Of a stretch of DNA of 64,000 bases, positions 3,164 through 64,000 are shown piece after piece. Below the pieces are notes generated by a model, which worked only from the letters and a program-made list of their open reading frames with translations, was not told the DNA's origin and did not search any database. The DNA is from Kiritimatiellia bacterium. GTDB lineage: Bacteria; Verrucomicrobiota; Kiritimatiellia; RZYC01. The number at the start of each line of letters is the position of its first letter. The first letter of the stretch is position 1. The DNA is taken from contig JAQVYB010000002.1 of NCBI GenBank assembly GCA_028708815.1, positions 1,495-65,494 on the forward strand. The letters run 5' to 3'. A program made the position numbers and the translations under genes.

Positions 3164-3460
3164 AGGGATAGAAGAATTCCGGGGGGCGTGCGGCAAGCCT
3201 TTCCGTTTTATGCGGGAGGAGGGGGCACTCTTTTCCGATAAATGAACATTTCGTAAAAAAGTTCGGTTGAATATTTAAGTGCGGGGGTGTTCGAATGCGG
3301 CATTCAATGGCCTGTGCTCGCCGGAGGAAGGCCCTTCGCAAGCCGCCTTACCAGCGAAATTTCGGTTGAGTAAGGGGGTGCGCGGATGATGCCGGCGGAA
3401 AGGTGTTTGGAAGATCATGGAGAACTTGCATTGGGCGGCGAAGGGACTAAAATCGGCGTC

Positions 3461-7193: not shown

Positions 7194-7254
7194 TTATGCA
7201 CGTTGCCCTGAAAAATGGTAAAAAACAGGGTGAAAAACAAACAGGGAGCAAACC

Positions 7255-8503: not shown

Positions 8504-8565
8504 ATAAGCAAGTCGCCCTGAAAAGCAAGAGAAAGAGGGGCGGGAAACAACATAGGGAGCGAATT

Positions 8566-32418: not shown

Positions 32419-32605
32419 GCTGCGAAACCTACCCGCCTGGACCGATGATGAACAGCATAAAAAGGAGCGATCTGGGGGGAGGGGAGGATATTGAGGGTCA
32501 TGTTTCTTTGCTATCCGGGGATACTCCAAATCAGGGCCATGGTCGGGAACGAAAAAGACGGCAAGATGCTGCATCTGATTGAAGGTGTCGCACGAGCTCC
32601 AGAAC

Positions 32606-32634
32606 GAAACGGCAACCGGGATGGTTGCCGTTTC
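32606..32634 (-). terminator. perfect 12-bp hairpin downstream of the giant gene (possible terminator)
   Basis: GAAACGGCAACC-gggat-GGTTGCCGTTTC, 26 nt after stop 32660. On the minus strand the 3' flank is only moderately U-rich (UUCGUUCU). Confidence 0.45.
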
Positions 32635-32659
32635 TTGGTCTTTTGCTGCTGCTGTTTTA

Positions 32660-38600: not shown

Positions 38601-41320
38601 CCTGCTTTTGTCCAGCCGGTCGGAGGAGAAACTCCGCTGCTGTCATCTTCAAAACCTGCGTTGGACAAGTCGGACGCAGCGCTGCCGCCGGCCTCCGTGT
38701 ATAACCAGCCACCAACCCGAAGCACATCACCTGCGGAAAAACCACTGTCAATGTCCTGATAAATGCCTCCATCCCACCAGAATTTCCAGGCATCGTTGCC
38801 CGAGTGCGTGATAGAGGTTTCCGGGTCATGCGAATCACTGTTCCAGTCCGACCACCCCGTCGGCGCGCTGCCGGTACCTGCCAACGTACCATTTGAAAGC
38901 AGGTTTGTGGATGCCGTCGCGACACGCGTAATCCGCCGCGCCGTCCAGGGTTGCCGCTCGGAGCGCTGGGCTCCGCCACCCGCAGGAGCAAGCCCATCCG
39001 CCGTGTATTTAACCCACGAATCATTCGGCGTGCTGCCGGTCAGCGGCTCGCTGTTTACCGTCGACATCAGCACATCCTCTTCATCCCGAAATTCAAGTTG
39101 AACCACGCCATATGCCCCGCCGCGTAACGGATCATCCGCGTTGCTGCGTAAATACTGGCTGTGCGAATAGCGTCCGTAGGGCACCACATCCCATTGATTC
39201 CAGAGACCCGCCTCACCCCACATCTGCACCATATTGCTGCCTTCATACACGCTGTCCCAGCCGGAGCGCACATGCGTCTCACCCCACTTGCCCCAGCCAT
39301 CGGCATTGGTATTGCAGGTTTCAAACCCCTTGTTGCGATGTGTATCCATGGTCGCCCACAGGGTGCCATCCGTCACTTCGATTTCATCACTGTACTTCCA
39401 GGTATAGGGCCTGTAGCTGTAATTCCCGTCCAAAGGACTGGCCGCACTTGCCGTAAACTGAACATCAACCGGCGTCCAGTACCACGAAATATATTCCTGT
39501 CGCCTGTTCGGAAATTCGTAGCCGCCGATATCACTTGCATCAATACCGAACAGGTCATCCAGCTTTTCTGCAAAATCCGCATATTCTTTCCCATGCTGAT
39601 CCTGCAAGCCGGGCAGATCTGCCGTAGCAATCACATTCACTCCCGCAGGAATGACGTTACTGACAATGAAATCGATCACCCCCATACCTGAATTCGGCAC
39701 TTCGTTTTCAACACGCATATTACGGGGAAGAATAAGCACGCTGTAGTTCGTATAAACATGGTTCGCCAAATCATCGAGATTCATGAAGTTGGGCTCATAT
39801 CCCAGTCGCTCCAGGGCGCCGGCAATCTGCTGCATTTCACATTCGTAGCGATTATATTGCGAATCATTCGCGGCCGTCCACAGAAAGGCAATATCGGGTT
39901 TAGGATCTTCAGATCCCATCAACAAATCCTGAATATCCACCTGATCCATCAGCGTAAACGTATTGCGGTTTTCCCAGAATGCCGGTTTAATGCGCCGATC
40001 CGCATAGAGAATACCAAAGCCTTTTTCACGCTCGGTGATATATGGACGATCCATCCACGAAAAGATATGCGTTCCGATCGCGCCGGCTTCAAGACTTTCC
40101 CACAGCGCGTTGTCAATCAACTGGCCCTGCCGATGGATGTCCATATGCGGCCACATCGTCTCCGAACTCGAAAACCCGGTCTCGGAATAGAGTACCGGCA
40201 CGCCGTTCGGTTGAGCCCCCGACCGCGTGGCGAATTTGGTGAACGAGATGCCCCACTGGCCGTTTTGCGATTCATGCCCCAGAATCGACCACGGATAATT
40301 ATTCACAGAAAAGAAATCAATCGGGGCCCCGACTTCCGCTGCTTTCTGCGTAATTTTGCCTCGGTCTTCCGCATGATAACGCCAGTCTTCTTCGCCCCAC
40401 TGCATGCCTACGGTCGAATAAGAAATCAAGTGATTGGTATCAGCGGCTTTGGACGCCGCAGCACTGGCCGCCGTAAACCCGGCAATCGAATCTTCACGGA
40501 ACTGAACCATATCCGCCCACTGTGCTCCCGGCGGACCATAAGCACGGTACTGCTCAATAAAAACAATATCTTCAAAGCTGCTGTACGAAGACCCCCACGT
40601 CGCATTCACCTGTTCGATGGTCGAATATTCATTGGAACACCACACGCGGAAAGCCTGCTCGGTTTCGTCATCATATCCATCCGGCAAACCACTCCACAAC
40701 CCAAGATAGCCATACTCATTGCCTACGACCCAGCCCACAATGGCTTTATTGGTACTGTAGCGCGAACACACCTGATAAATCCAGTTGGAATACTGTGCAC
40801 GTGCCTCAGGATGTTCATAGTTGATAATGTCCGACTGCCAGCGGTTGGTGTGTTCAATTCCTTCTGAATCCAGCTCCGGCGGATGCTTTGTATACCATTC
40901 ATCCGGAAACCAGTTCGGCGGCCACTGATAGCCCACCAAGGCAAAAATACGAATGTTGCGTTCTTCACACGCCTTCACAAAATAATCATAATTGTCCCAG
41001 CTGAAGATATCATCCCCCAACTCCTCTGCATGCTGCCAGACAATGTCAATGCGAACACTGTTCGCGCCCATCTTCACCATCTCGTCCAGATCGTAGTCAA
41101 CCTGCTCGAAGGTCTGCCAAACGCCCAGGGGGCGATTCCACGTCTGATACGCGATACCATGGGGAACCCAGGCCTCGCCTGTGGTCCGGTCGAAAAAATA
41201 GCCGTTCGTTATGCCAATGAATCCCTCAAAGGCCTGTCCCACTACCGTGAAAAGCAGCAGAAACAGAAGGACTAAACTTGAAATGACTAATGAACCACCC
41301 GCGGAATGACCTGAACGCAT
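32660..41320 (-). CDS. giant (2886 aa) surface protein: GH-A clan (GH42-like) glycosidase + CBM-like modules + LamG/DUF1080-like domains
   Basis: ATG 41320 with AAGGAGG SD and signal/anchor LVISSLVLLFLLLFTVVG. (beta/alpha)8 motifs MVKMGANSVRIDIVW and VGWVVGNEYG. Repeated CBM-like units follow. Two DUF1080/LamG-like segments (FSDGNADGWV...NWNVENGALRA; FDDGNYTGWTV...SWSVTDGALRA). Confidence 0.7.
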   Translation of the reverse strand: MRSGHSAGGSLVISSLVLLFLLLFTVVGQAFEGFIGITNGYFFDRTTGEAWVPHGIAYQTWNRPLGVWQTFEQVDYDLDEMVKMGANSVRIDIVWQHAEELGDDIFSWDNYDYFVKACEERNIRIFALVGYQWPPNWFPDEWYTKHPPELDSEGIEHTNRWQSDIINYEHPEARAQYSNWIYQVCSRYSTNKAIVGWVVGNEYGYLGLWSGLPDGYDDETEQAFRVWCSNEYSTIEQVNATWGSSYSSFEDIVFIEQYRAYGPPGAQWADMVQFREDSIAGFTAASAAASKAADTNHLISYSTVGMQWGEEDWRYHAEDRGKITQKAAEVGAPIDFFSVNNYPWSILGHESQNGQWGISFTKFATRSGAQPNGVPVLYSETGFSSSETMWPHMDIHRQGQLIDNALWESLEAGAIGTHIFSWMDRPYITEREKGFGILYADRRIKPAFWENRNTFTLMDQVDIQDLLMGSEDPKPDIAFLWTAANDSQYNRYECEMQQIAGALERLGYEPNFMNLDDLANHVYTNYSVLILPRNMRVENEVPNSGMGVIDFIVSNVIPAGVNVIATADLPGLQDQHGKEYADFAEKLDDLFGIDASDIGGYEFPNRRQEYISWYWTPVDVQFTASAASPLDGNYSYRPYTWKYSDEIEVTDGTLWATMDTHRNKGFETCNTNADGWGKWGETHVRSGWDSVYEGSNMVQMWGEAGLWNQWDVVPYGRYSHSQYLRSNADDPLRGGAYGVVQLEFRDEEDVLMSTVNSEPLTGSTPNDSWVKYTADGLAPAGGGAQRSERQPWTARRITRVATASTNLLSNGTLAGTGSAPTGWSDWNSDSHDPETSITHSGNDAWKFWWDGGIYQDIDSGFSAGDVLRVGGWLYTEAGGSAASDLSNAGFEDDSSGVSPPTGWTKAGNGSVWCEVQGFADAGTKVAKIYQGYANYTQVLYQELGASEGDEFIASANVYDWSLSGNPMESGDKAYTVIEWRDSGGSLLAGSVTSSVITSASGQDSWHLLSVTGAAPADTASARMVLALAAGANNNVQVYWDSVSLTLQNPSSGDPLRDGSKHGVIQVEFSDDANNLISSVSASPTISKDSAKGVWILSEGDFIVPVNAVNTRVLVRCNDYSAGDGTFFADDLYAFNASHHPNLVSNGELDGSGDAPTGWAGWNNDSHDPDTEYYRSGNNAWAFWWDGGIYQDVTDSIISGDQLVFGGHFFTPGGSAESPALSNVSFEADSSGTTPPSFWTKSGNGNAWCENHNFADDGTKAAKIFQGWPNQKMTLYQDVNAAEGDEYTAEAKMYDWSLAGNPMQNGDQAYLILEWKNSGGSDLGGAVTSAIITAASGQDTWHVLSASGTAPANTAFARLVMVAAAGTNYNLDTYWDSATISMENTADPLRDGTKYGTVELEFYNGETRLSTIAASPTISTNSPQNTWINSEGTATVPTTATKARIVVRCNDHTSGDGRFMADDIFIRNTSPGGSLYVDGKTRSPAVVVKDHGAGKGKAAIFLYGVGDVEPDGNEDREMDVLPWKWRYDIFESLVKNYFDVAPQLEIQGSNSHLAMVEYRTLVDDSTLWQVKNYMWDTNFPASFTNAGGGDSQTFTIQSDLFAGKTIQAFEAGKILEENSDGTTELTLVPDGMEILHVFDTNTVSQIVQIEDAPALVHPFGDKVYQVIVRYDCLARADLTLNLAFNEKGDNGDSQPNEIYQQLTAAVSGSGTHVFEIWIPNADLNDSDYISTVDGGAYEFTAWLEDASSNRVEEAVPQAVQLTWGVRPTGELPETMDKGDSVQIDIEWEDLYEYLPWEATPLARADAYPARIAIFRSSKTEQAYPGHFDTVNAVADWLETMGYEPGNKLDISFDNVTVPGLFSDTFSDGNADGWVRAAGCANWNVENGALRASRIGNDDNIMLTGSDWTNYSVRVDITYNEQGHYLNDAEVYLRYVDRNNFVKVGIENFFGFWRLKRTVRIDADNAETSWLFDFQKTNSPVEDVTYNLRVDATGGVFDVYFNGAYVNTFVDTTFSAGKIGVGTKATQLGIWEPRKGYYFIDDDEYSYYGGIDTTVTEASPLNLDYGYLVGFFPTLMLPGTYVMSDVEVSNVVTWIDSGLNSLIVLDGGVACENELGVSDMGRIEELLGVAASVTVVSNLTSATVGDDGHYATLDYDTGDTISISGNAFAYNSLLSSAVDVLTLDNGTVAVPGLILNQRADHPDSPSKVIVFNFDAASGGQLTNTFSMPAQRAFEWARGEAYQVTLELKYDTQSTNAFDFVILKTTGWLLTGSGTNTLMVDIPENNIMTGDNLYWVMYVHPWDSTDPWRDHGGFYTSEDEAGAPLYTSLSGVGLQVLGITDVAYAGRDWDKWIAYNTRTQELVLAYGLKDKGVIDIQDHFDDGNYTGWTVSPNANISWSVTDGALRASVSGAGGESYITRNGLALNNTNITFEYDVLFENGAASGGIIYRGVKLDLNPTRCGWVDDDPNYTNNPLTTGVWYHVVVNLRDGNPYMRSDVRVGNELVFVTEDIEVTNFNSNTIGLIAPTMTGYAAWDNIRVVDEEYAVVWSTVNGVSFPTNDVPTGTWPTVPDYDPNMIEHGGANEGCQYEWFIHFKGKDGVYARQDVNIYFSPRLMVESSNFPTRMARGETVTVPVEWEGLGTGSAGKLKLSLEDPYLGTNAARGTFDITNATGTAEFELTIDAGAAAGKNYNWLAYFYPTTATNPMLQRIGLDDTFCFQPVEMGAPIAPETTIEVTSIVDGDFVVYSDAGIPADSDLFTWSGGGGTWDSEFTIWPAAEGVETFYTLNFLSYIGWGIFDTGGVDLSAYTNGYLKFSLFALDTMKVEIEDMDGHKGTANVGPTSIYWTHYSIPMTNFPAVDFSRIKGMFMITSYDAAEYIVDQIRWSNTAD
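36920..38908 (-). repeat. internal tandem duplication of a ~336-aa three-module unit in the giant protein
   Basis: Unit 1 starts at TNLLSNGTLAGTGSAPTGWSDWNSDSHDP (about 38908). Unit 2 starts at PNLVSNGELDGSGDAPTGWAGWNNDSHDP (about 37900). Both end with ...RCND(Y/H).(A/S)GDG.F.ADD. Confidence 0.75.
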
Positions 41321-41371
41321 GACCAGCCTCCTTCTTTCTTTTACACACACCACCCTTCAGACAGTACTAGT

Positions 41372-44236: not shown

Positions 44237-46417
44237 TCAGCTTGTGGGAATCGGTGCAAACAGGATTTTTTCGTAGGCAGCGAGAAATCGTTCGGCCATG
44301 TGGGTATGCGTAAACTCGCTCAACACGCGTTCGCGTCCGGCGCGGCCCATATGCCCGCGTTCGGCGTCGTCGGTCATGAGTCGGTTCAGGGCGTTTAGCA
44401 GGGCGGGTGCATCGCCGGGGGGCGTGAGGAGTCCGTCGATGCCGTCGCGCACCACTTCCGGCACGCCGCCGGTGACGCAGCCGACCACGGCCTTGCCGTA
44501 CTGCATGGCTTCGAGATAAATCAATCCGAACGATTCAAAAAGGGATGGCGCGACAAAAAGATCGCACTGTTGGTAGGCCCGGTGCATTTCCTCTTCCGTG
44601 CATACCCCTTTGAATGTCACGCGCGCAGCCAGATGGGGAGGACAGGTTTTCTGAAAACGGTCTTTAAAGGGCTGGCCATCGGTGTCGGGGATGGTGTCGT
44701 TGCCAATGAGTATGCACTGCCAGTCCGGATGCTTTTCGAGGAGGTCCGGGAGAATTTCCAGCAGCACATGAATGCCTTTGCGACGTTCGCAGCGGCCGAC
44801 GAACAGCAGCGTTTTGAACGGGCCGGATTTTATGGGCTCCGTCATTTGGCGGGGGACAATGCCCAGCGGAACGATGGCCACTTCCGCGAGGCGTTCTTCC
44901 GGGATGTTCATGAGGGTTCGATAGCTCTCCAGCACGCCGCGCGTAGGGGCGCACAGTTGGGCCGCGTGAAGAACCTGCCAATGGTCGGTGGCAATGCATG
45001 CGCGTTTTTCATCGTCGTAGTTCCATTGCATTTCCACCACATCGGCGGCCAGCGAGGTGACGAGGGTGAGAGATACGGGAGTTTTTCCGGCCTGGATAAC
45101 GGCCAGCGCTTCCGCGTTCCAGTTGGTGGCGTGGATGATGTCGAAAGAGATTCCAGCGAGGGCGAGGCGGTCCAGTCGATGCTGAATCGCGAGGCCGTAG
45201 CAGAGGTTGTGATTCAATTCGGGATGACTGCTCATCGGATTCCAGCGTCCGATTTCCTCTTCGGAAATACCATGAATGAAAAAGTCCAGTGACTCATGAT
45301 GGAGCGGACGTGTATCCCGGCAGAGAATGTGCACCTCATGGCCCAGATGATGCAGGCCTTTCGCCAGATCAAAGGTATAGCGTCCGATGCCGCCGCAACC
45401 GGGGTGCGATGGAATGTCGGTGGTCAGCAGGGCGATACACCGTTTTGCGGCGGGGTTCGGATTCGCAGCCATTTTAAAGGACATTGGAGCCGGGTCGAAT
45501 GTGGTGGTTCGTCGTCGGGTGAAGAGCCCGAGATAGAGCCCTGCGAGCAATCCTTGCATCCAGTGCCGGCGCAGGGCCAAACGCTCCGCGAAGCTCAGCA
45601 ATCCTCGTTTCGTATAATCGCGTATGATGCGGCAGTAATATTTATTCGGGGCGAAGCGCAGGGTGTTGAATAGGCGAAGAGGAAGGAGGTCGTCGCTGTT
45701 TTTCAGTGAAAAACAGGTATCGCTTCGCGTGATGGTCGCCCACTTGTCCGGCGGAAGGCCCATCTTGAATTGGGTGCGTGTGGGATAATGCCGCACGGGA
45801 TTCTCCATCAGAAACCGGTACGTGAAACCGGCCTGATGCAATCGGAAGAAAACGTCCGTCTCATCCAGCCAGAAGCGGAAGCGTTCGTCGTAACCGCCGA
45901 TGGCGGCGAGGGCGCTTCGTCGGAACGCGCAGTTGCAGCCCTGTCCGCGTTCGATCCAGGGCCTGCCATCGGGGGATGGCGCGTTGGCATCCAGCGAGTC
46001 GAAGCGCTGGAAAGCGTAGGCGGTGGTGGCGCCGCCGGTATATTCATAGTCGTTGGAATCGTAGGCCAGCACCGATCCGGCGGCGCCTCCGAGTTGCGGG
46101 TCCGACTCAAACGCATCCACATATCGCTTTAACCAGAGCCCGCTGCCGGGAACCGCATCATCATCAATAAAGACCAGGACATCGCCCGATGCGGCCGCAA
46201 TCCCGATATTGCGGGAGACGGAAAGATTCATGACGGGGCAGTGCGCTACTTTGATTTGGGCAGCATACTGATCCAATACGCTCAATGAGTCATCGGTGGA
46301 TGGTCCGTTAACCACCACGATTTCCATTTCCACATCCACCAGATGCAAGAGTCCCGGCAGGAGCCGTTTCAGATGCTCCGCGCGGTTGCAGGTGTTAATG
46401 ATGATCGAACTTTTCAT
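44237..46417 (-). CDS. bifunctional GT2 (N-terminal) / GT1 (C-terminal) glycosyltransferase
   Basis: GT2: SSIIINTCNRAEHL...IVVVNGPSTDDS...FIDDDAVP. GT1: LLFVGRCERRKGIHVLL...FVAPSLFESFGLIYLEAMQYGKAVVG. ATG 46417 is preferred over 46429, which lies inside the palindrome. Confidence 0.85.
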   Translation of the reverse strand: MKSSIIINTCNRAEHLKRLLPGLLHLVDVEMEIVVVNGPSTDDSLSVLDQYAAQIKVAHCPVMNLSVSRNIGIAAASGDVLVFIDDDAVPGSGLWLKRYVDAFESDPQLGGAAGSVLAYDSNDYEYTGGATTAYAFQRFDSLDANAPSPDGRPWIERGQGCNCAFRRSALAAIGGYDERFRFWLDETDVFFRLHQAGFTYRFLMENPVRHYPTRTQFKMGLPPDKWATITRSDTCFSLKNSDDLLPLRLFNTLRFAPNKYYCRIIRDYTKRGLLSFAERLALRRHWMQGLLAGLYLGLFTRRRTTTFDPAPMSFKMAANPNPAAKRCIALLTTDIPSHPGCGGIGRYTFDLAKGLHHLGHEVHILCRDTRPLHHESLDFFIHGISEEEIGRWNPMSSHPELNHNLCYGLAIQHRLDRLALAGISFDIIHATNWNAEALAVIQAGKTPVSLTLVTSLAADVVEMQWNYDDEKRACIATDHWQVLHAAQLCAPTRGVLESYRTLMNIPEERLAEVAIVPLGIVPRQMTEPIKSGPFKTLLFVGRCERRKGIHVLLEILPDLLEKHPDWQCILIGNDTIPDTDGQPFKDRFQKTCPPHLAARVTFKGVCTEEEMHRAYQQCDLFVAPSLFESFGLIYLEAMQYGKAVVGCVTGGVPEVVRDGIDGLLTPPGDAPALLNALNRLMTDDAERGHMGRAGRERVLSEFTHTHMAERFLAAYEKILFAPIPTS

Positions 46418-46449
46418 TTTTCCAATCATTGGAAGGGTCCTCAGGACCC
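46369..46449. repeat. 81-bp segment (GT gene 5' end + two palindromes), copy A
   Basis: 75/81 identical to 47181-47261 by manual alignment. Confidence 0.85.
46420..46449. promoter_or_regulatory. adjacent palindromes TTCCAATCATTGGAA + GGGTCCTCAGGACCC at the GT2-GT1 gene start
   Basis: Both are perfect 7+1+7 inverted repeats: 46420-46434 and 46435-46449. Confidence 0.6.
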
Positions 46450-46450
46450 C

Positions 46451-47179
46451 TTACTGGCCCGTACAACGGTTTGCATAACAAAACTTCATCACCTTCGCAA
46501 TTTCTTCCAGCGAATAGCCTTCCCAGGCGAATCCCGCCAGGTGGATTAAAAAATCTCTGGAGGGAAACCGGCAAAGATTATACGGATCTGCGGGGTCCAG
46601 GTAACTGTTGAATAGGTTGTGTTCCATGATGACCCGGGTATGTTTTCGTACGTTCTTATCCGATTCATACAGGTGAATAAACGCTTTGTTTTCCCACCAG
46701 GGGTGATCAATGAATTCCGTCTGGGCATACAGGCGATCCATGAACTCGAACGACCATGAGCAGCGTTTTACGAAGAAATTTCCCATATTCAGATTATTTT
46801 TAGCATCCCGCGTAAGCATAAATGATTTATGGCCCATGTGTTCTCTGATCAAATCGTGCAGCTTGATGGCGCCGTTGATGATGACCACGTCCGCATCACT
46901 GAAAAACACATAATCGTAGTTCGGCAGGTACTTCTTGATTAACTGGATTTTGGACCAGGATGGCGGGCGTCCAGTGTCGAGGATCTCTTCCCCGCCGATG
47001 AATAAATCATACCCATGATGGCGGCAATATTCCTCCTTGCTGCGAAGGCCGGGCGCCATGGCATCCCGATAGAAATTACCTGTGCATAGCGTTAGCATGG
47101 CGATGCGGGGAGGATGTCGGAAGGGTGCGCATCCGGAAAACGTATTTTTCAGATATTGGATTACAGTCCGAAAGGACAT
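46451..47179 (-). CDS. GT34/GMA12-like nucleotide-sugar transferase (putative)
   Basis: IAMLTLCTGNFY...YCRHHGYDL...SWSKIQLIKKYLPNYDYVFFSDADVVI resembles the galactosyl/mannosyl transferase (DUF273/GT34) pattern. AT-richer codon usage than its neighbours. Confidence 0.5.
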   Translation of the reverse strand: MSFRTVIQYLKNTFSGCAPFRHPPRIAMLTLCTGNFYRDAMAPGLRSKEEYCRHHGYDLFIGGEEILDTGRPPSWSKIQLIKKYLPNYDYVFFSDADVVIINGAIKLHDLIREHMGHKSFMLTRDAKNNLNMGNFFVKRCSWSFEFMDRLYAQTEFIDHPWWENKAFIHLYESDKNVRKHTRVIMEHNLFNSYLDPADPYNLCRFPSRDFLIHLAGFAWEGYSLEEIAKVMKFCYANRCTGQ

Positions 47180-47180
47180 A

Positions 47181-47261
47181 TCAGATGCTCCGCACGGTTG
47201 CCGGTGTTAATGATGACCGAACGTTTCATTTTTCCAATCATTGGAAGGTTTCTCAGGACCC
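47181..47261. repeat. 81-bp segment, copy B (pseudo 5' end of a GT gene plus palindromes)
   Basis: Encodes MKRSVIINTGNRAEHL, against MKSSIIINTCNRAEHL in copy A. It then runs out of frame into the GT34-like gene. Confidence 0.85.
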
Positions 47262-47288
47262 CCTTTCCATTTTTTCCAATCATTGGAA
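47232..47288. promoter_or_regulatory. two further copies of TTCCAATCATTGGAA (47232-47246, 47274-47288)
   Basis: Exact matches. The second contains the TGA stop of the methyltransferase gene. Confidence 0.6.
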
Positions 47289-48050
47289 ACTTCTGCCTGT
47301 TACAATAGTGTTCCACGTTATCGGTTGAAGCATGCGCGGGGCGTGTTTTTCCAGGATACGATCCATGCCGCAACAAAGGGCGCTGAGTGGATTCATGAGC
47401 CAATGCGGTTTTAGTATGATTTCTGCAAATGGCGTTGAAAACAGGCCCTGTGGATATGCGGCTATGTCGGAAAATTCCGCCTTCTGGAAATAATCATGCA
47501 GCTGGATGGCACTTAATTCCTGCTGTTCACACGAGTAGGAGGAGTCGACTTTCGTTCTCAATTTTCGAAGATGGCTGAAAAGGGGATTGGCGGGCTGTGG
47601 TTCGTTGACCACAAGAGATCCCCCCGGCTTGAGCAGCTGTTTGGCTGTTTTCAGAGCGCGAGGAATGTCGTTCATGTGGTGCAGGACGCCGATCATCAGG
47701 ATGAGGTCATAGCGGGTTTCCGTGTTGAACTCATAGAAATTAACGGATTGGAAAAGGGCATTCGGTGTCGCATTCAACTGCTTGGCATGCTCAATCAGAT
47801 CAGCGGAATAATCGATGCCGGTATACGTTCTGCATGAATTCTGAAGATAACGTGCGGAAAACCCTGCGCCGCAGCCGACTTCCAGAATATCTGTGTCCGC
47901 ATTTGTTCGCGCGTACCGAATTGACTGCATCAATCGCAATGCACGGGCTCTTCTGGATGGGCCCCACTGATCCTTTCGAATATAGCTGTTGGCGATGCGA
48001 TCAAACAATTCCATATCCCTTTTTGATCGAGTTGTCTGATCATCATCCAT
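47280..48050 (-). CDS. class I SAM-dependent methyltransferase
   Basis: ILEVGCGAGFSARYL (motif I)...DLILMIGVLHHMND...LKPGGSLVV. Confidence 0.85.
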   Translation of the reverse strand: MDDDQTTRSKRDMELFDRIANSYIRKDQWGPSRRARALRLMQSIRYARTNADTDILEVGCGAGFSARYLQNSCRTYTGIDYSADLIEHAKQLNATPNALFQSVNFYEFNTETRYDLILMIGVLHHMNDIPRALKTAKQLLKPGGSLVVNEPQPANPLFSHLRKLRTKVDSSYSCEQQELSAIQLHDYFQKAEFSDIAAYPQGLFSTPFAEIILKPHWLMNPLSALCCGMDRILEKHAPRMLQPITWNTIVTGRSFQ

Positions 48051-57313: not shown

Positions 57314-59125
57314 ATGGTCAAGTGTTCAGGATGGATATTGGTTTTGTTTTGTTTTGCGTTCGGGGTGTTCCCGGCGTGTTGGGGGGTGGCGCAGGAGGTG
57401 TATACGGCGCCGGAGGTGGTGGTGAGTGCGTCGGAAACGGATGCGGCTTTTACGGATCCGGAGGGTGGCTTGGCAGCGCAGGCGGCCGTTCTGCCGGGGG
57501 TTGTGCTGGATGCTCAGGGCGGGCCGGGCGGCCAGGGGGATCTGCGGATTCGGGGCGGCGCGTTCAGCGGGGCCGGTTTATCCGTGAACGGGCTCTCGCT
57601 CGGGAATGCGCAGACGGAGCATTTCAATGCGGAGCTTCCTTTGGCGGCGACGTTGTTTGATGAACCGTTTGTGCTGACAGGGGTTGAGCAGGCCTTGCAG
57701 GCAGAGGGGCATTTGAATGGTACGGTCAGCCTGAGGTTGCGTCCGATGGCGTTCTGCACGGAGGGCGAGGCGGGAATCGGGGCATATGAGAGCGGGTGGT
57801 TGCGCGGTTGCACGGCACAACGCGTGATGACTTCGGCCTCGGGCGGTCGGCTCGGGGTGGCGGCGTTTGGAGGTTATGACCGTTTCAATCATGTGAACGA
57901 TGAGGATAATGATAACGAGGGAGTGCTGGGAGGCGGTCAGGTTCAGTGGTTGCGCGGGGATGTGCAGGCGGATGCCGTGGCCGGATATCGGGAAAAGTCT
58001 TTCGGAGCGCGTGGTTACTACGGCGTGCATCCGGATTATCCGGCGGATGAGAAGACGAAGGATTTTCTGCTGTTGGGTTCGTTGAGGCAAGGCACGGAGG
58101 AGAAATACACGGAAGGATCGGCGGCATACCGGGATTTTAATGATGATTACCGATTGGAGCTGCCGACATCGCTGTATCATAACGAACACCGCACCCGTAC
58201 GGTATCGGCACAGGTCGGCGGGCGGAAACCGTTTTCCGATTGGGCGGGGGGCGTGTGGCGTTTGAGCGCGGATCAGGAGGAGCTGACGAGCGAGTCACTG
58301 GGGGATCACCGGCGGAGTCATGCCGCGCTGACACTGATTCCGGAGGTGCGGTTGAAGGCGTGGTGTTTTGCGGCGGGTGTGCGGCAGGAATGGTTCGAAC
58401 GGGAGGAACCGGCGATGCTTCCGCAGGTTTCGGTGCAGTGGGAGGGGGTGTACGGTCAGTTGGTGGAGTTGGCCTGGAGTCGAACGGTGCGGCAGCCTTC
58501 GTATACGGAATTGAATTATGAATCACCGGCGAGTCTGGGGCAGGAGGGTTTGGATAATCAGTTTGCCGATACGCTGGAGCTGCATTGGAAGCTGGCGCGC
58601 GATGTGTGGAGTTTGGAGATCGGGCCGTTCGCGCGGGAAACGAGGGATACGGTGGATTGGGTGCGCCCGACGGAGGCGTCGACGCGGTGGCTGGCTGAAA
58701 ATGTCGGTACGGTTCGGGCGCTGGGCGCGGATGGTTCTGCGGTGTGGATGGTGCGGGAGGATTTGCGTTTGCGGGCGGATGGCATGTGGATGAGTCAGTC
58801 GGACAATGCGGATATTTATGCGAGCCGCTATGCGCTGGATTATATGCGGGTGCTGGTGCGGGTGCATGCGCAGTGGCAGGTGACGCACCGGGTGGATTGC
58901 GCGTTCAGTCAGGGGTACCGCCTTCAGGCGGAAAATCCGATGCGCGGACATGGTGACGAGCAGTGGCTCGCGGCGTTGCGGTTGGGGGTGCGCCTGCCGG
59001 GGTGCCGGGATGTGCGGTTGGTGCTTTCAGTGGAAAATTTGTGGGACGATGATTTCGAGGAGTTCCCGGGCCAGGCCACGGCCACGGGACGCCGCGTTTA
59101 CGCGGGGGTGACGGCTGTTTTCTGA
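57314..59125 (+). CDS. TonB-dependent outer-membrane receptor (small, 603 aa)
   Basis: Signal peptide, plug motifs (APEVVVSASE...LPGVVLDAQGGPGGQGDLRIRGG...VNGLSL), beta-barrel repeats and a terminal aromatic residue (AGVTAVF). Confidence 0.8.
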   Translation: MVKCSGWILVLFCFAFGVFPACWGVAQEVYTAPEVVVSASETDAAFTDPEGGLAAQAAVLPGVVLDAQGGPGGQGDLRIRGGAFSGAGLSVNGLSLGNAQTEHFNAELPLAATLFDEPFVLTGVEQALQAEGHLNGTVSLRLRPMAFCTEGEAGIGAYESGWLRGCTAQRVMTSASGGRLGVAAFGGYDRFNHVNDEDNDNEGVLGGGQVQWLRGDVQADAVAGYREKSFGARGYYGVHPDYPADEKTKDFLLLGSLRQGTEEKYTEGSAAYRDFNDDYRLELPTSLYHNEHRTRTVSAQVGGRKPFSDWAGGVWRLSADQEELTSESLGDHRRSHAALTLIPEVRLKAWCFAAGVRQEWFEREEPAMLPQVSVQWEGVYGQLVELAWSRTVRQPSYTELNYESPASLGQEGLDNQFADTLELHWKLARDVWSLEIGPFARETRDTVDWVRPTEASTRWLAENVGTVRALGADGSAVWMVREDLRLRADGMWMSQSDNADIYASRYALDYMRVLVRVHAQWQVTHRVDCAFSQGYRLQAENPMRGHGDEQWLAALRLGVRLPGCRDVRLVLSVENLWDDDFEEFPGQATATGRRVYAGVTAVF

Positions 59126-61233
59126 GCGGTGCGGTTCGCGTCGGGTTTTGCGTGTTGGCGGGGGGCAGACTTTTTCGTTGGGGTGTTTTGTTGTTCGCGG
59201 CGGGGGCATTCCACGTCCATGAGGGCGCCGGTGCGGGTGAGGCGCAGGGCACGCGGGCCAATGTTCGGCAGGTTGACGGGGCGCAGCAGGACATGCAGTT
59301 GAAGCAACTCGCGCAGCTGGTGATCGTTCAGGGCGAGTTCTTTGTAGGTGCGCCAGAGCACGTAGGTGCAGCCTTCCTTCCAATGCGAGCAGCCAATGCC
59401 CTTTTTGCCGGCGATGAGTTCGGCGCCGCAGAGGGGACAGCGTCCCCAGCGGGCCGGGTTCACGCGGGCGGCGACGGCGCCGCGCACGAGCTGGGCGGTG
59501 TAGTCGGCAATGGCCCGCATGAAGGCTTCGGGGGCATAGGTGCCTCGCTCGATGCGGTGGAGTTTCTCTTCCCATTCGCCGGTCATTTCGGGCGACTTGA
59601 GAAGGTTGTCCTGCAGGAGGGAGATGAGGAAGCGGCCCATGTCGGTGGCGAGTATGGTTTTCTTTTCGCGTCGGATGTAATTTCTTCGCAGAAGGGTTTC
59701 AATGATGGCGGCGCGGGTGGCGGGTGTGCCGATGCCGCTTTCCTTGAGGGCCTCGCGGAGGGTTTCATCTTCCACGAATTTGCCGGCGGACTCCATGGCG
59801 GCGAGGAGTGAATTTTCGGTGTAGTGTTTCGGGGGTTTTGTTTTGCCCTCGCGTACGGCGGGTTCGTGGGGGCCCTGCTCGCCGGCGGTGAAGGCGGGCA
59901 GTTCCTGGTCGTCCTCTTCCTTTTTCCTGGGCGCGGGGAAGAGGGCGGTCCAGCCGGGTTGGAGGATGACGGTGCCTTTGGCCTGAAAGGGCACGCCGTT
60001 GCTTTCGCCATCCACGGTGGTGACTTCCTTTTCGCAGTCGGGATAGAAGGCGGCGATGAGCTGCACCAGGATGGCATCGTAGACCTGCTGTGCGCGTTTA
60101 TCGAGGGCATGCGGCGGGACGCCGGTGGGGATGATGGCGTGGTGATCTTTCACTTTTTCGTTGTCGGTGATGCGCTTGGAAAAGGCGAGGTGTTCGAGAT
60201 CGAGTGCGGCGATGGCTTTGGGCTGAAGGGCGGCGAGGTCGTGCAGGATGCGGGGGATGCGCGGCTCGATGTCGGCGGTGAGGTAGCGCGAATCGGTTCG
60301 GGGATAGGTGATGACCTTCTGTTCGTAGAGGGTTTGGGCAATGGAAAGGGTCTGGGCGGCGGAGAGGTTGTAGCGGCGGTTCATGTCGCGCTGAAGGGCG
60401 GTGAGGTCGTAGAGCTGCGGGGAGCGGTCGGTTTTTTTTGCACCTTTGATGGAGCGGATGATGAAGGGCTGCCCCTGAATGGCGGCGAGTTGTTCGTTGG
60501 CCTTGGAGGGATCGGTGAAGCGTTCGCCGGTATATTTGAAGAGGACTTTGCGGTAGACCGTGGTGAGTTCCCAGAAGGGTTGCGTGTTGAAAAGATCGAT
60601 GTCGTCGTCGCGCTCGACGATCAGGGCGAGTACGGGAGTCTGGACGCGTCCGAGGCTCCACAGCACGCGGTCGCCGCCGCCTGCCGTGCCGTAGCGTACG
60701 GTGTGGCAGCGGGTGGCGTTGAGGCCGACGATCCAGTCGGACTCACTGCGGCATCGGGCGGCGGCGTAGAGGGCGTCGTAGTCGTGTCCGTCCCGCAGAC
60801 GGGCGAAGGCGTCGCGGACGGCTTCGGTGGTGAGGGAGTTGAGCCAGAGGCGTCGGAAGGGTTTGTCTTTGCATCCGGCGAGATCGGCGAGGTAGCGGAA
60901 GATGAGTTCGCCCTCCCGCCCGGCATCGGTTGCGCAGATGATGTCGTCGGCTTCGTTCAGCAGGCGCTGAATGACTTCGAACTGTTCTTTGACGCCCCTG
61001 TTCTGAATGAGTTTAAGGCGGAAGGCTTCAGGAATGAAAGGGAGCGTTTGCAGGTTCCAGCTCTTGAGTTCGGGGGCGTAGTCGCCGGGTTCCAGGAGGG
61101 TGACGAGATGCCCAAAGGCCCAGGTTACGGCGCAGCCCTTGCCTTCGAGGTAGCCGTCGCGCTTCGTTTTGATACCCCATACGGCGGCAATGTCGCGCGC
61201 CACGGAGGGCTTTTCTGTTAGGATAACTTTCAT
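59098..61233 (-). CDS. topB: DNA topoisomerase III
   Basis: MKVILTEKPSVARDIA...VTWAFGHL (Toprim), ITYPRTDSRYL (active-site Tyr), and a C-terminal zinc ribbon CPLCGAEL...CSHWKEGC. Confidence 0.9.
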   Translation of the reverse strand: MKVILTEKPSVARDIAAVWGIKTKRDGYLEGKGCAVTWAFGHLVTLLEPGDYAPELKSWNLQTLPFIPEAFRLKLIQNRGVKEQFEVIQRLLNEADDIICATDAGREGELIFRYLADLAGCKDKPFRRLWLNSLTTEAVRDAFARLRDGHDYDALYAAARCRSESDWIVGLNATRCHTVRYGTAGGGDRVLWSLGRVQTPVLALIVERDDDIDLFNTQPFWELTTVYRKVLFKYTGERFTDPSKANEQLAAIQGQPFIIRSIKGAKKTDRSPQLYDLTALQRDMNRRYNLSAAQTLSIAQTLYEQKVITYPRTDSRYLTADIEPRIPRILHDLAALQPKAIAALDLEHLAFSKRITDNEKVKDHHAIIPTGVPPHALDKRAQQVYDAILVQLIAAFYPDCEKEVTTVDGESNGVPFQAKGTVILQPGWTALFPAPRKKEEDDQELPAFTAGEQGPHEPAVREGKTKPPKHYTENSLLAAMESAGKFVEDETLREALKESGIGTPATRAAIIETLLRRNYIRREKKTILATDMGRFLISLLQDNLLKSPEMTGEWEEKLHRIERGTYAPEAFMRAIADYTAQLVRGAVAARVNPARWGRCPLCGAELIAGKKGIGCSHWKEGCTYVLWRTYKELALNDHQLRELLQLHVLLRPVNLPNIGPRALRLTRTGALMDVECPRREQQNTPTKKSAPRQHAKPDANRTAQKTAVTPA

Positions 61234-61339
61234 GTTTCTGAAATCTGCCCGCTGGTGTAGTCTCCGTTATACACAGATTGGGAGGGGTTATGGAAGAACA
61301 GAATAGCGCCGGGAGCGGTCGGGGGAGCGAAAAAAAAGT

Positions 61340-61478
61340 TTCCAATCATTGGAACTTTTTTTCTCGTTTTTTCCAATCATTGGAAACTTTTTTTCGGTTT
61401 TTTCCAATCGTTGGAAACTTTTCCGGCGTTTTTTCCAATCGTTGGAAACTTTTTTTTCATTTTTTCCAATCATTGGAA
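61340..61478. repeat. 31-bp tandem array (about 4.6 units), each unit carrying the TTCCAAT(C)(A/G)TTGGAA inverted repeat
   Basis: Cores at 61340, 61371, 61402, 61433 and 61464. Units 1, 2 and 5 are perfect 7+1+7 palindromes. Units 3 and 4 share an A->G change. Confidence 0.9.
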
Positions 61479-64000
61479 ACTTGTCGGGCGCCTGTTTTTG
61501 TTCGTTCGGCGGGGGTGCTGCTGCTGGTCTGCGCGGGGGTGACGGCGGCGGGGCCGGTTCCGTTTGAGGAGGACGATACGATCGAGGAAATCCGGGAGAA
61601 GATCGCACTGAATGGGTACGCCTTCGAGGTGGCGACGAATGCGGTGTTCAATCTGCCGAGGGCGGAACGCAAGGCGCTGCATAACCGGCGTGCTTCGGAG
61701 CCGTCGAATTACCGGATGGCGGTGCCGGAGGATGCGGGGCCGCTCGAAGAGGTGTTGAAGGAGAGAAAGGCGCTGCCGGCGGCGTTTGACTGGCGGGACG
61801 TCGAGGGGCGTGCCTACATTGGCGGGGTGCGGGATCAGGGCAGTTGCGGGTCGTGTTATGCGTTCGGTGCGTGCGCGGCGGCGGAGAGCACCTACAATTA
61901 CGCGATGGGTTTGTATGATGGGAGCGCGGTGGATTTTTCGGAATCGTTCATCATTTGGTGTCTGGGGACGTTGCCGGATTACAACGAGCATTTTTACGGA
62001 TGCGACGGCGCGGATTATGATTATGCGGAACTGACGGCGATGACGCGGGAGGGCATCAGCTATGAGTCGGCCTTTCCCTATACGGTTTCCGGCTCGTGCG
62101 GTACGCATTGGAATGATCCGCGCGTGGTGTTTGATTCCTGGCATCGGATTCCGTGCGGCGACATCGAGGCGATCAAGACGGCGATCATGACGTATGGCGC
62201 GGTGGACGTGGCGGTCTATGTCGGTTCGGCTTTTGATGCCTACAGCAGCGGTATCTATGAGGATACACGCACGGCGTGCAACGGGTCGCCCTGCTATTAC
62301 ACCACCGCCAATCACGCGGTTGCGCTGGTGGGCTGGAACGATGCCGACGGGGGATATTGGATTCTGCGCAACAGTTGGGGCACGGGTTGGGGCGAGGGTG
62401 GGTATATGCGCATCCGCTACACCTCCGCCGTGGTCTCCTGCGAGGCCTGTTATTTCTATATGGAAACAGGCCCCACGATCACCACGCTGGCCGCCTCGAA
62501 CCTGGGCGATAACACGGCCCGCCTGCACGGCACGGTCAACCCGAACAACCAGTATACGCAGTATTATTTTCAATACGGACTCAGCACCGCCTATGGGAAC
62601 AACACGCCCACCCAAAGCGCGGGCAGCGGAAGCACCGAGGTGAATGTGCAGGCCGATCTTACCGGACTCGAACCACGCACCCTCTACCACTTCCGCCTCC
62701 TGGGCGTGAGCGGCGGACGCAGTATCCCCGGCGCCGACCGAACCTTCACCACCACCGGCGCGGCCGTGCCGCCCGATGTGGTGAGCCTCCCCGCGACCGG
62801 CATTTCGCATGAGTATGCCACGTTGAATGCGACGGTGAATCCGCGCGGCGCGGCGACCACCGCCTGGTTTGAATACGGTACAAATGCCGCGTATGGAAGG
62901 GCCACGTCCAAAACGGCGCTCGGTTCGGGCTCCACGGCGGTAAGCGCGAACCGGGCCATTACCGGGCTCCTGCCCGAGACGACGTATCACTTTCGTGCCG
63001 CCGCTTCGAATGCCGCCGGGATCACGTACGGCACCGGCCTTACCCTGCTTACTCTCCCGACCCCGCTCACGTTTATTGAGGAGGGTTTCGAGCATGGCGG
63101 GGAGATGCCCTCGGGTTGGACGGAGGAGTATGTGCGCCCCTGCGTGAATTGGCTGTTCCGCAACGGCGGCGATCAGTATCCCACCGCCGCGCACTCCGGC
63201 AGCTATAATGCCTATGCGTATTATGAGGGATGGGATGGACGCAGCACGCGCCTGATCACCCCGCCCATTGATTTTGGAACCAACCGCTATGCGAAGCTGA
63301 CGTTCTGGCTGTTCAATGAAAACTGGGCGGGCGATCAGGATGTCCTGCGCGTACTGACCCGCAACTCCGAGCTGGAAGAATGGACGCTCACGGGAAGCTG
63401 GGATCAGAATCTCGCCGCGTGGACGCAGCAATCCATCTACCTGACGAATCTGAGCTCCACCTGTTTTGTCGCCTTCGAGGGCCTGCTCAATTACGGCTAT
63501 GGCATTGCCGTGGATGATGTCATCATTGCCACCTGTGAGGCGCCCCCGGCGCCCACTCCCGCGCCCCCGGCTGCCCGCGCCGTGCGCAATGATTTCGATG
63601 GCGATGCCCGTTCGGACATCGGCTGCTATTACCCGCCCTCGGGTGACTGGTATTTCTATTTCAGCTCGAGCGGGTACGCCCAACGCGTGCTCGGGCACGT
63701 TAATTTCGTGCCCGTGACGGATGATTTCGATGGCGACGGCCTCTGCGATTACGCCACCTATTACGCACCCTACGGTTGGTGGGATATTCAGTGTTCTTCT
63801 GAAGGCCTGCGCCAAAATGATTTTGGTTTCGCCGGAACCCTTCCGATCACCGGGGATTTCGATGGCGATCGCTACGCCGATTACGGATGCTATTATCCGC
63901 CCACCGGCGCGTGGTATATTTACAAGAGCCGCGGCGGCTTCTGGATGAATTATTTCGGCTACAGCGGGACCCTACCCGTGATCGGCGATTTCGATGGCGA
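61473..64000 (+). CDS. secreted papain-like (C1) cysteine peptidase with Fn3-like repeats, jelly-roll (MAM/choice-of-anchor-J-like) domain and FG-GAP/VCBS-like repeats; 3' end outside window
   Basis: Frame 3 is open to the window end, which is why it is absent from the ORF track. VRDQGSCGSCYAFGA (catalytic Cys), NHAVALVGW (His), ILRNSWGTGWGEGGY. Two LHGTVNP...Y.F.YG repeats. NDFDGD repeats at the end. Start uncertain: TTG 61473, GTG 61515 or ATG 61290. Confidence 0.8.
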   Translation, partial: METCRAPVFVRSAGVLLLVCAGVTAAGPVPFEEDDTIEEIREKIALNGYAFEVATNAVFNLPRAERKALHNRRASEPSNYRMAVPEDAGPLEEVLKERKALPAAFDWRDVEGRAYIGGVRDQGSCGSCYAFGACAAAESTYNYAMGLYDGSAVDFSESFIIWCLGTLPDYNEHFYGCDGADYDYAELTAMTREGISYESAFPYTVSGSCGTHWNDPRVVFDSWHRIPCGDIEAIKTAIMTYGAVDVAVYVGSAFDAYSSGIYEDTRTACNGSPCYYTTANHAVALVGWNDADGGYWILRNSWGTGWGEGGYMRIRYTSAVVSCEACYFYMETGPTITTLAASNLGDNTARLHGTVNPNNQYTQYYFQYGLSTAYGNNTPTQSAGSGSTEVNVQADLTGLEPRTLYHFRLLGVSGGRSIPGADRTFTTTGAAVPPDVVSLPATGISHEYATLNATVNPRGAATTAWFEYGTNAAYGRATSKTALGSGSTAVSANRAITGLLPETTYHFRAAASNAAGITYGTGLTLLTLPTPLTFIEEGFEHGGEMPSGWTEEYVRPCVNWLFRNGGDQYPTAAHSGSYNAYAYYEGWDGRSTRLITPPIDFGTNRYAKLTFWLFNENWAGDQDVLRVLTRNSELEEWTLTGSWDQNLAAWTQQSIYLTNLSSTCFVAFEGLLNYGYGIAVDDVIIATCEAPPAPTPAPPAARAVRNDFDGDARSDIGCYYPPSGDWYFYFSSSGYAQRVLGHVNFVPVTDDFDGDGLCDYATYYAPYGWWDIQCSSEGLRQNDFGFAGTLPITGDFDGDRYADYGCYYPPTGAWYIYKSRGGFWMNYFGYSGTLPVIGDFDG

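Follow-up and report, generated by a model that had tools for sequence, protein, structure and literature searches.

A helically phased 17-bp palindrome repeated across genomes of Kiritimatiellota: a candidate recognition site for a clade-wide DNA-binding protein

Introduction

Between two divergently transcribed genes of a Kiritimatiellia bacterium, topB and a gene for a papain-family (C1) peptidase, lie five copies of one short palindrome at exact intervals of 31 bp. What does such an array do between these two genes, and does it belong to this locus or to a wider system? The DNA concerned is a stretch of 64,000 nucleotides (assembly GCA_028708815.1, contig JAQVYB010000002.1, positions 1,495 to 65,494), referred to here as the window. 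Kiritimatiellota are an understudied phylum of polysaccharide degraders from sediments, rumen and gut, and to our knowledge almost nothing is known of their transcriptional or chromosomal organisation. The array proves to be one instance of a 17-bp palindrome which recurs genome-wide and throughout the clade, is conserved in sequence and in helical phasing, and is biased towards the promoter side of genes. Its symmetry and spacing point to a dimeric DNA-binding protein as the reader of the site, a reading to which we give about an even chance of being correct. From these properties we infer the binding of a protein, its cooperative nature and the direction in which it would affect gene expression.

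The array between topB and the peptidase gene

The array is made up of five copies of TTTCCAAT-C-(A/G)TTGGAAA in exact 31-bp steps between 61339 and 61479. The first-pass annotation of this stretch, made from its letters alone, had described 15-bp cores (TTCCAATC[A/G]TTGGAA) starting at 61340, 61371, 61402, 61433 and 61464. Both sequence and repeat searches bear this out: Tandem Repeats Finder reports a period of 31 with 4.6 copies (score 209), and a separate repeat search returns spacings of 31, 31 and 31. The palindrome is longer than the 15-bp core, extending over 17 bp as TTTCCAAT-S-ATTGGAAA. The position of the array between topB and a C1 peptidase gene is confirmed by Pfam, and the two genes diverge from it. 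The features of the locus are as follows; the palindromes and the array are given without strand.

59098 to 61233, minus strand: topB, topoisomerase III type (Topoisom_bac and Toprim domains, Pfam), transcribed away from the array
61328 to 61482: the complete array of five 31-bp units (35% GC), whose A/T tracts are in phase at ~10.3 bp
61339 to 61355: palindrome copy 1 (TTTCCAATCATTGGAAC), closest to topB, flanked by A8 (61330-61337) and T7
61370 to 61386: palindrome copy 2 (TTTCCAATCATTGGAAA), exact consensus
61401 to 61417: palindrome copy 3 (TTTCCAATCGTTGGAAA), with an A to G variant at +1
61432 to 61448: palindrome copy 4 (TTTCCAATCGTTGGAAA), with the same variant as copy 3
61463 to 61479: palindrome copy 5, exact consensus, including TTG 61473-61475
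61473 to 64000, plus strand, continuing past the end of the window: C1 (papain-family) peptidase (Peptidase_C1, Pfam), with C-terminal fn3, MAM-like and FG-GAP-like parts

Copy 1 lies 106 nt from the topB ATG and is bordered by a run of eight A and a run of seven T. As the first-pass annotation had noted, the array is AT-rich within a GC-rich locus (35% GC against 55-67% in the flanks), and units 3 and 4 have one A to G variant in common (AATCGTT). A/T tracts inside the array are phased at about 10.3-10.5 bp, with a spectral power that is reached in only 1.4% of within-unit permutations. The motif is strongly over-represented in the window as a whole. The 15-mer pattern with up to two mismatches matches 17 times over both strands where 0.8 matches would be expected, and TTCCA-N5-TGGAA occurs nine times against an expectation of 0.10.

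Conventional signals do not account for the array. A sigma-70 promoter scan of 61100-61700 gave 0 sites and a terminator scan of the same interval gave no excess, whilst Rfam returned 0 matches over the whole window at the gathering threshold and sub-threshold noise only for the array at E<=10. The consensus had not been recognised in the first-pass annotation as the site of any described regulator, and literature and Rfam searches likewise produced no regulator or RNA family that matches it. A literature search with the motif in several notations, and with Kiritimatiellota combined with palindrome, promoter and inverted repeat, found nothing relevant.

A palindrome found genome-wide and clade-wide

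The same palindrome occurs elsewhere in the window, at 46420, 47232 and 47274, in each case just upstream of the start of a minus-strand gene, which brings the window to three separate motif loci in 64 kb. These further copies, again given without strand, are:

46419 to 46435: a single palindrome ending 1 nt upstream of the ATG (46417) of a minus-strand GT2/GT4 glycosyltransferase gene
47231 to 47247: a palindrome upstream of a GT34-like gene (46451 to 47179, minus strand), inside an 82-bp direct repeat
47273 to 47289: a palindrome 42 bp, or four helical turns, from the preceding copy

The 82-bp direct repeat (46369-46450 and 47181-47262, 93% identity) brackets the GT34-like glycosyltransferase gene. 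Each of its copies holds the first ~48 nt of a GT2-type open reading frame (ORF; MK[SR]S[IV]IINT..NRAEHL) with its ATG, one palindrome and a GC hairpin. The arrangement suggests that a gene was inserted or duplicated where a gene start carried the motif. The G+C-rich hairpin (GGGTCCTGAGGACCC, with a variant GGTTTCTCAGGACCCC) directly adjoins the palindrome at 46436-46450 and 47248-47262, between co-directional genes, and may be the actual terminator or processing hairpin there.

To follow the motif beyond the window, TTTCCAATSATTGGAAA was scanned for in a collection with one genome per GTDB species, and at least 117 eight-kb blocks were matched. Twelve of these are single in-gene matches in unrelated taxa; a calculation gives ~70 chance matches to the scanned motif over the whole genome collection. 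At least 105 blocks, from at least 42 other assemblies, carry the palindrome. Their labels are Kiritimatiellae, Kiritimatiellales, Pontiellaceae, Pontiella, Tichowtungia, "Verrucomicrobiota", "Spartobacteria", "Lentisphaerae" and uncultured, several labels of metagenome-assembled genomes (MAGs) being loose. Tichowtungia and Pontiellaceae belong to separate classes of Kiritimatiellota in the NCBI taxonomy.

Some viral contigs also carry the motif. A viral or proviral contig of 55% GC (L132, IMG/VR UViG_3300035698_006241) holds a three-copy array with 31-bp spacing at 3428-3506, and three others (L141, L143 and L149) have two sites apiece. Such contigs may come from phages or prophages that infect the clade and share the motif of their hosts. 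The matches in viral contigs are otherwise mostly single chance ones in low-GC phages, the three-copy array being confined to L132.

Anatomy of the site and quantised spacing

The anatomy of the motif was drawn from 366 sites with at most two mismatches to the consensus; the related loci in which they lie are 8-kb blocks that were chosen for containing a site. Every site has a C:G pair at its centre; TTCCA and TGGAA, the outer half-sites one helical turn apart, are all but invariant, and mismatches are concentrated at positions +-1 and +-8. At ~3520-3600 of one related locus (L110), variant palindromes (TTTCCATCCAATGGAAA and TTTCCATTCAATGGAAA) stand beside canonical sites; they keep the outer TTTCCA/TGGAAA whilst the inner 5 bp are rearranged, which suggests that specificity is carried by the outer half-sites.

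The distances between neighbouring sites are quantised. Measured from centre to centre, they fall at 20-23 bp (n=20, peak 22), 30-33 bp (n=145, peak 31-32) and 42-43 bp (n=5); spacings of 51-52 bp are also seen, and no values lie between the classes. In 98 of the 99 multi-site clusters every spacing belongs to the ~22, 31-32, 42 or 52 bp class. Clusters of 1, 2, 3, 4, 5, 6 and 7 sites number 89, 63, 15, 11, 4, 5 and 1, respectively. The favoured distance varies with the genome: 32 bp in bin-1020, 31 bp in lineages like that of the window, and 22, 30 or 31 bp in rumen MAGs.

The spacers themselves differ among loci and genomes although the spacing is kept, and in bin-1020 they are G+C-rich and unrelated from one pair to the next. 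Unrelated spacers at a constant distance argue for a constraint on the spacing as such rather than for a side effect of unit copying. The first-pass annotation had taken the shared variant to suggest unit-wise duplication, and in the array of the window, where the units are alike down to that variant, local duplication did occur; the copies in bin-1020 are not replicas of one unit.

As RNA, a single site would form a hairpin of -4 to -5 kcal/mol with two G:C pairs, barely better than shuffled sequence, and most sites lack a U-tract. Unit 1 with its A8 and T7 flanks does fold at -11.5 kcal/mol (z = -4.3), and the entire array folds well as RNA from either strand. Complementary pairs are found in 14 of 27 mirrored double changes against about one third expected, a weak excess which is confounded as evidence for a hairpin. 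To judge from the alignment of sites, it is the site sequence itself that is conserved and not merely its pairing.

Location relative to genes

Gene calls in the related loci were made with an ORF-based heuristic, and a site right at the 5' end of an ORF was counted as upstream. On this basis a site is present in 29 of 69 divergent intergenic regions (42%), 59 of 189 tandem ones (31%) and 7 of 53 convergent ones (13%); in lineages like that of the window none of 12 convergent regions is occupied. This is the pattern of a promoter-side element, notwithstanding real convergent cases such as the clusters at 2804 in L008 and at 1416 in L049. In the sampled blocks the density of sites is 1.4-7.8 per kb in non-coding DNA against 0.06-0.23 per kb in coding DNA, a 7- to 130-fold excess which reaches 60-130-fold in bin-1020 and in lineages like that of the window. 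The first-pass annotation had set out a genome-wide scatter free of positional bias, in the manner of repetitive extragenic palindromes (REP) or miniature inverted-repeat transposable elements (MITE), as an opposing possibility. The scatter is indeed genome-wide and clade-wide, but the absence of bias is contradicted by the strong preference for intergenic, promoter-side positions.

Corrected for each block having been picked for one site, the frequency of clusters is estimated at ~1 per 6 kb in bin-1020 and Pontiellaceae-like genomes and at ~1 per 30-60 kb in rumen genomes and lineages like that of the window. Two samples are free of site selection, namely the 64-kb window with its three clusters and a 22-kb locus (L121) with two arrays. 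At least about one third of the promoter-containing intergenic regions in the bin-1020 blocks carry a pair of sites.

The genes that follow the arrays are unrelated to one another; recognised by eye from sequence, they include purM, a P-type ATPase gene, yggS, an acyl-CoA synthetase gene and genes for large secreted proteins. An all-against-all BLASTP comparison of cluster-flanking genes yielded translated arrays and a few orthologues only, with no recurrent family, and no coherent regulon was seen among the array-flanking genes. An apparent peak of sites at -11 from the start codon is produced by the ATG inside CCAATGATTGG, which in related loci is frequently miscalled as a start codon.

Copies inside genes

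Some 40 sites of Pontiellaceae-like genomes lie mid-way in long ORFs. They occupy frames 0, 1 and 2 in 17, 14 and 12 cases, encoding FPMIGK, SNDWK or FQSLE, and in the frame where a central G would make TGA the centre is C or a neighbouring base is altered. Their hosts include genes for PurB, GspF, LeuA/homocitrate-synthase-like enzymes and an RND pump (loci including L044, L034, L062, L071 and L081). The RND pump with the site aligns without gaps over the site region to a homologue that lacks it, which indicates that such copies arose by substitution at the DNA level, with no element inserted. Three genomes have one in-gene site conserved at the orthologous position.

Conservation and turnover at orthologous loci

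Alignment of orthologous intergenic regions, which the first-pass annotation had proposed, shows palindromes that are kept whilst the spacers have diverged. In L119, whose TopB is 93% identical to that of the window, three sites at 31 bp lie upstream of topB and a fourth is distal. A ~190-bp G+C-rich insertion at ~1170-1354 of L119, with several short hairpin-like repeats, divides this array into 1 + 3 copies, compared with the contiguous five of the window. In L120 (TopB 81% identical) at least two sites stand 31 bp apart with an unrelated spacer, the contig ending there, and in L121 (TopB 66% identical) no array lies upstream of topB; its two arrays, each of four sites at 31 bp, are elsewhere in the locus.

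The same holds away from topB. A pair of sites upstream of an orthologous gene in L092 and L097 is kept at 72% nucleotide identity although spacer and flanks have diverged, the spacing being 32 bp in one and 31 bp in the other, whilst in the orthologous loci L046 and L061 a gene is flanked by sites in one and by none in the other. Since palindromes are kept as spacers diverge, and some sites are present in one orthologous locus and absent from the other, the sites are under purifying selection and yet turn over.

The peptidase start and the block next to topB

The first-pass annotation had allowed that the array might simply be translated from ATG 61290 as the N terminus of the peptidase, and an ORF with a strong Shine-Dalgarno sequence does extend from this ATG through the array to the peptidase. 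It has an open counterpart in L119, where the two other frames contain stops. Its start lies in a block shared by the orthologous loci:

61266 to 61306 (L119 ~1465-1505; L120 ~85-125), given without strand: block common to three orthologous loci, between the array and the topB ATG

On the plus strand this block contains the Shine-Dalgarno sequence and ATG 61290 (MEEQN; MEEQN / MKAQN over the three loci), and the conservation of both, with the first codons, in three orthologues is a point in favour of translation of the array. On the topB strand it reads CATTCTGTTCTTCCATAA...GTATAAC (...CTTCCATAA...GTATAAC, 32 nt before the ATG) and may thus be a putative topB promoter, albeit one not called by a simple sigma-70 scan. 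The conservation of the block could reflect a topB promoter, an upstream ORF or chance.

Translation of the array is nevertheless disfavoured. The plus strand of the array is free of stops in every frame, and the period of 31 is not a multiple of three, so that the reading frame shifts with each unit. Between close orthologues this stretch differs by complete units and by the 190-bp insertion. Homologues of the peptidase all start with a signal peptide of 25-30 residues directly before a P[IV]PFE..DDT motif and lack the extension, and an NCBI protein which is 98% identical (P0121), labelled there as Kiritimatiellae, starts with METIWAPVF..., corresponding to the TTG in copy 5. The position of the signal peptide in homologues and the start of P0121 place the probable peptidase start, by homology, at TTG 61473, whilst a Logan gene call puts it at GTG 61524. 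With either start copies 1-4 would lie upstream of the gene, and copy 5 overlaps the TTG start. Gene calling on the Logan contig also gives a 39-aa ORF at 61230-61349 on the minus strand (L001 864-983), running from an ATG in copy 1 to an ATGA overlap with the topB start. This ORF is probably spurious, as it is not conserved and is stopped after six codons in L119.

Other features of the window

A 300-nt direct repeat of 88% identity (7221-7520 and 8532-8831, 1311 bp apart) corresponds to tandem paralogous ORFs of 325 aa (7255 to 8232 and 8566 to 9543). Two adjoining very large ORFs of 1256 and 2897 aa occupy 28942 to 32712 and 32660 to 41353 on the minus strand.

A proposed recognition site for a cooperative dimer

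What kind of reader would such a site have? Its dyad symmetry and conserved sequence, whole-turn spacing with free spacers, phased A/T tracts and promoter-side bias are in keeping with a symmetric dimer which recognises double-stranded DNA and binds cooperatively along one side of the helix. The first-pass annotation had likewise placed all sites on one side of the DNA and been reminded of the sites of dimeric regulators, and the dyad-symmetric, helically phased sites are indeed what a dimeric protein bound on one face would be expected to have. We consider it an evenly balanced proposition that the 17-bp palindrome is the recognition site, clade-wide, of a symmetric dimer of a sequence-specific double-stranded DNA-binding protein, a global regulator or a nucleoid-associated protein, which binds cooperatively on the same face. 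Such a dimer would recognise TTTCCAAT-S-ATTGGAAA through the TTCCA and TGGAA half-sites, one turn apart. Kiritimatiellota would possess it throughout, in amounts that suffice for hundreds of sites per genome, and it is this number of sites, together with the want of a coherent regulon, that would make it a global regulator or a nucleoid-associated protein. Whole-turn spacing would place the dimers on one face of the DNA, allowing cooperative binding, oligomerisation or wrapping, and in the lineage of the window the phased A/T tracts of the spacers would assist by bending the DNA. At the topB locus the five sites would fill the ~240-bp divergent control region of topB and the peptidase gene, with copy 5 overlapping the peptidase start, and occupancy of the array may repress or insulate the promoter and 5' end of the peptidase gene and modulate topB.

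Several observations weigh against this proposal. The ~40 in-gene copies of Pontiellaceae-like genomes would be unusual for an ordinary transcription factor, and seven clusters fall in convergent intergenic regions, which would not be expected to contain a promoter. In related loci there is no fixed distance between site and start codon, and in L120 the distance from the array to the putative topB -10 element is shifted by 6 bp, so that strict activator-type phasing is not supported. No DNA-binding gene recurs beside the arrays, and no candidate for the binder is found among the flanking genes. Finally, the survey relies on gene calls by an ORF heuristic and on blocks that were selected for holding a site.

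Alternative explanations

Could the motif instead be a mobile or accumulated sequence? A selfish or domesticated palindrome of the REP or BIME (bacterial interspersed mosaic element) type, whose hairpin would be recognised and spread by a RAYT-type (REP-associated tyrosine) transposase of the Y1/HUH class, with arrays formed by local amplification, is unlikely but has points in its favour: the motif is highly iterated, mostly extragenic and clustered in tandem, the like units of the window with their shared A to G variant show that local duplication occurred, the 82-bp duplication with its site brackets an inserted glycosyltransferase gene, and one related locus (L121) has a faint Y1_Tnp match. 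REP sequences are, however, typically specific to a species or genus, whereas this 17-mer is unchanged in at least 42 assemblies and two NCBI classes. In bin-1020 neither spacers nor flanks are conserved, so that the copies there are not replicas of one unit, and the in-gene copies, in three frames of ungapped conserved proteins, were made by substitution. The hairpin is weak, and a hairpin element would have no reason to be spaced in multiples of ~10.5 bp. No sites lie near the Y1_Tnp-like gene of L121, and within the sampled loci no RAYT gene flanked by sites was seen. Taken together the sequences disfavour an inserted REP or MITE element. The in-gene copies would be explained by a signal for DNA uptake, akin to the DNA uptake sequences (DUS) of Neisseria or the uptake signal sequences (USS) of Pasteurellaceae, which would accumulate by recombination drive through the preference of a competence receptor. 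Strong over-representation across the whole clade, ~1 cluster per 6 kb in Pontiellaceae-like genomes and, in these genomes only, substitution-made copies in conserved genes in all frames with a centre base that avoids TGA would all follow. Yet tandem arrays of 4-7 copies at whole turns are not a known feature of uptake signals, and the 60-130-fold non-coding excess of bin-1020 and lineages like that of the window is far above that of DUS and USS. Furthermore, divergent regions are occupied more than convergent ones, the opposite of the terminator-associated DUS pattern. We know of no report of competence in this phylum, and regard an uptake signal as quite unlikely.

A symmetric, bidirectional core promoter element of the clade's RNA polymerase holoenzyme, formed by the palindrome or a pair of them, would agree with the promoter-side bias, with the pairs in about one third or more of the promoter-containing intergenic regions of the bin-1020 blocks and with the 17-bp gap between TTGGAA and TCCAAT that, read from the sequence, a 31-bp spacing creates, as in sigma-70 geometry. 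It is improbable all the same. The hexamers are poor, TCCAAT being without the important A in second position, and the sigma-70 scan of 61100-61700 was empty. Neither perfect dyad symmetry nor the occurrence of single sites is typical of promoters, sites occur also in convergent gaps and inside genes, and between the array and topB there is another conserved block, which resembles a -10 element. Distinctly improbable, too, is a function in RNA, where the hairpin would act as a bidirectional terminator, a stabiliser of mRNA 3' ends or an element of the 5' untranslated region. The folding of unit 1 with its A8 and T7 runs, that of the whole array on either strand and the clusters that fill certain convergent gaps would suit such a role. 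The single hairpins, with their two G:C pairs, mostly do no better than shuffled sequence and have no U-tract, though, the terminator scan showed no excess, and the array lies between divergent genes in a group of lineages with 0 of 12 convergent regions occupied. The sequence and not just the pairing is conserved, no Rfam family matches, and a weak hairpin combined with a spacing periodicity that is a property of double-stranded DNA argues against an RNA-level role. Least probable of all is an element specific to this locus, whether partition centromere, iteron array, dedicated local operator or translated N terminus. The array does have the form of sopC or iterons, and the ORF from ATG 61290 with its strong Shine-Dalgarno sequence is open into the peptidase, in L119 as well as in the window. 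The genome-wide and clade-wide distribution, however, excludes a centromere, iterons or a dedicated operator, and neither par nor rep genes nor any other recurrent neighbour turned up beside the arrays. Copy number and content differ between orthologues that are 93% identical, and translation is opposed by the period of 31, by homologues that start at the signal peptide before P[IV]PFE, by the start of P0121 inside unit 5 and by a plus strand that is stop-free in every frame anyway. The comparisons with sopC-type centromeres, iterons, ParB/KorB sites and local multi-operators made in the first-pass annotation thus did not hold up, the motif being present elsewhere in the window and in at least 42 other assemblies with no cognate gene next to it. 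In particular, replication-origin iterons were rejected because the units are perfect palindromes, the neighbours are topB and a peptidase gene and arrays occur at many loci, and a sopC/parS centromere because there are three loci in 64 kb and many in each of at least 42 assemblies, with no recurrent neighbour.

Parallels with described systems

For the DNA-binding dimer that we favour, the closest precedents are phased multi-operator arrays: sites of the Lrp/AsnC family are about three turns apart, paired NrdR boxes are separated by 31-32 bp and the NtrC sites at glnAp2 by 32 bp. These share with the present motif dyad sites of 15-17 bp, whole-turn distances of mostly 31-32 bp and free spacers, and the clusters of the present motif have a bias towards putative promoter regions, where those arrays lie. 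They differ in that the present motif has another consensus of far higher information content, and in that it has far more sites (~1 cluster per 6-58 kb), identity at the level of the phylum, in-gene copies and no regulon coherence. Palindromes are also the form of several chromosomal sites, among them the Noc-binding site ATTTCCCGGGAAAT, parS TGTTNCACGTGAAACA, matS and the SlmA site. Like them the motif is scattered on the chromosome, in genes as well, and its outer TTTCC/GGAAA resembles the Noc site; unlike Noc- and parS-type sites it has half-sites 5 bp further apart, an odd length, many more copies and tandem phased arrays, and the 17-mer TTTCCAAT-S-ATTGGAAA does not match parS TGTTNCACGTGAAACA. 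The 7-1-7 boxes of the Fur family and the sites of Noc/parS, CodY, TetR and NtrC would seem to have only partial features in common with it.

With the REP and BIME of enterobacteria and pseudomonads the motif shares its form, a highly iterated and mostly extragenic palindrome in tandem clusters, but it is the same in at least 42 assemblies, has unconserved spacers, a weak hairpin and helical-turn spacing, and has been substituted into genes. Neisseria DUS, Pasteurellaceae USS and cyanobacterial HIP1 are, like it, over-represented across a clade and tolerated in coding DNA in all frames; the present motif is set apart as a perfect 17-bp palindrome in tandem phased arrays that is biased to the promoter side and, in several lineages, extremely enriched between genes. 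The sopC site of the F plasmid and plasmid iterons have tandem units which each carry a short inverted repeat, in a helically phased period, but theirs are single loci beside partition or replication genes, whilst the present palindrome is spread over whole genomes and the clade and lacks neighbours of that kind. The element thus mixes traits of phased operator arrays, of REP-like iterated palindromes and of coding copies like those of uptake signals, and fits none of them in full.

What the palindrome may mean for Kiritimatiellota

In its widest form, which we hold tentatively and at somewhat under even chances, the proposal is that Kiritimatiellota possess an undescribed genome-wide DNA signal, a perfect 17-bp palindrome identical over at least two classes, that is read by an abundant, clade-specific and oligomerising protein, marks a sizeable part of the transcription-unit boundaries and in some lineages has been substituted into coding sequence. 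The motif has immediate uses. It is a cheap taxonomic signature for binning contigs of Kiritimatiellota and their phages, and a warning for gene callers, as its internal ATG and TTG and the stop-free strand create false N-terminal extensions. A palindrome that is identical throughout a clade, present hundreds of times per genome and spaced in whole turns implies a major DNA-binding factor that has yet to be described, and the motif offers a direct handle for finding it. If the proposal is correct, Kiritimatiellota would have a system of a new kind for organising the nucleoid or for global transcription; alternatively, the palindrome would be the first signal for DNA uptake from the PVC (Planctomycetes, Verrucomicrobia and Chlamydiae) group.

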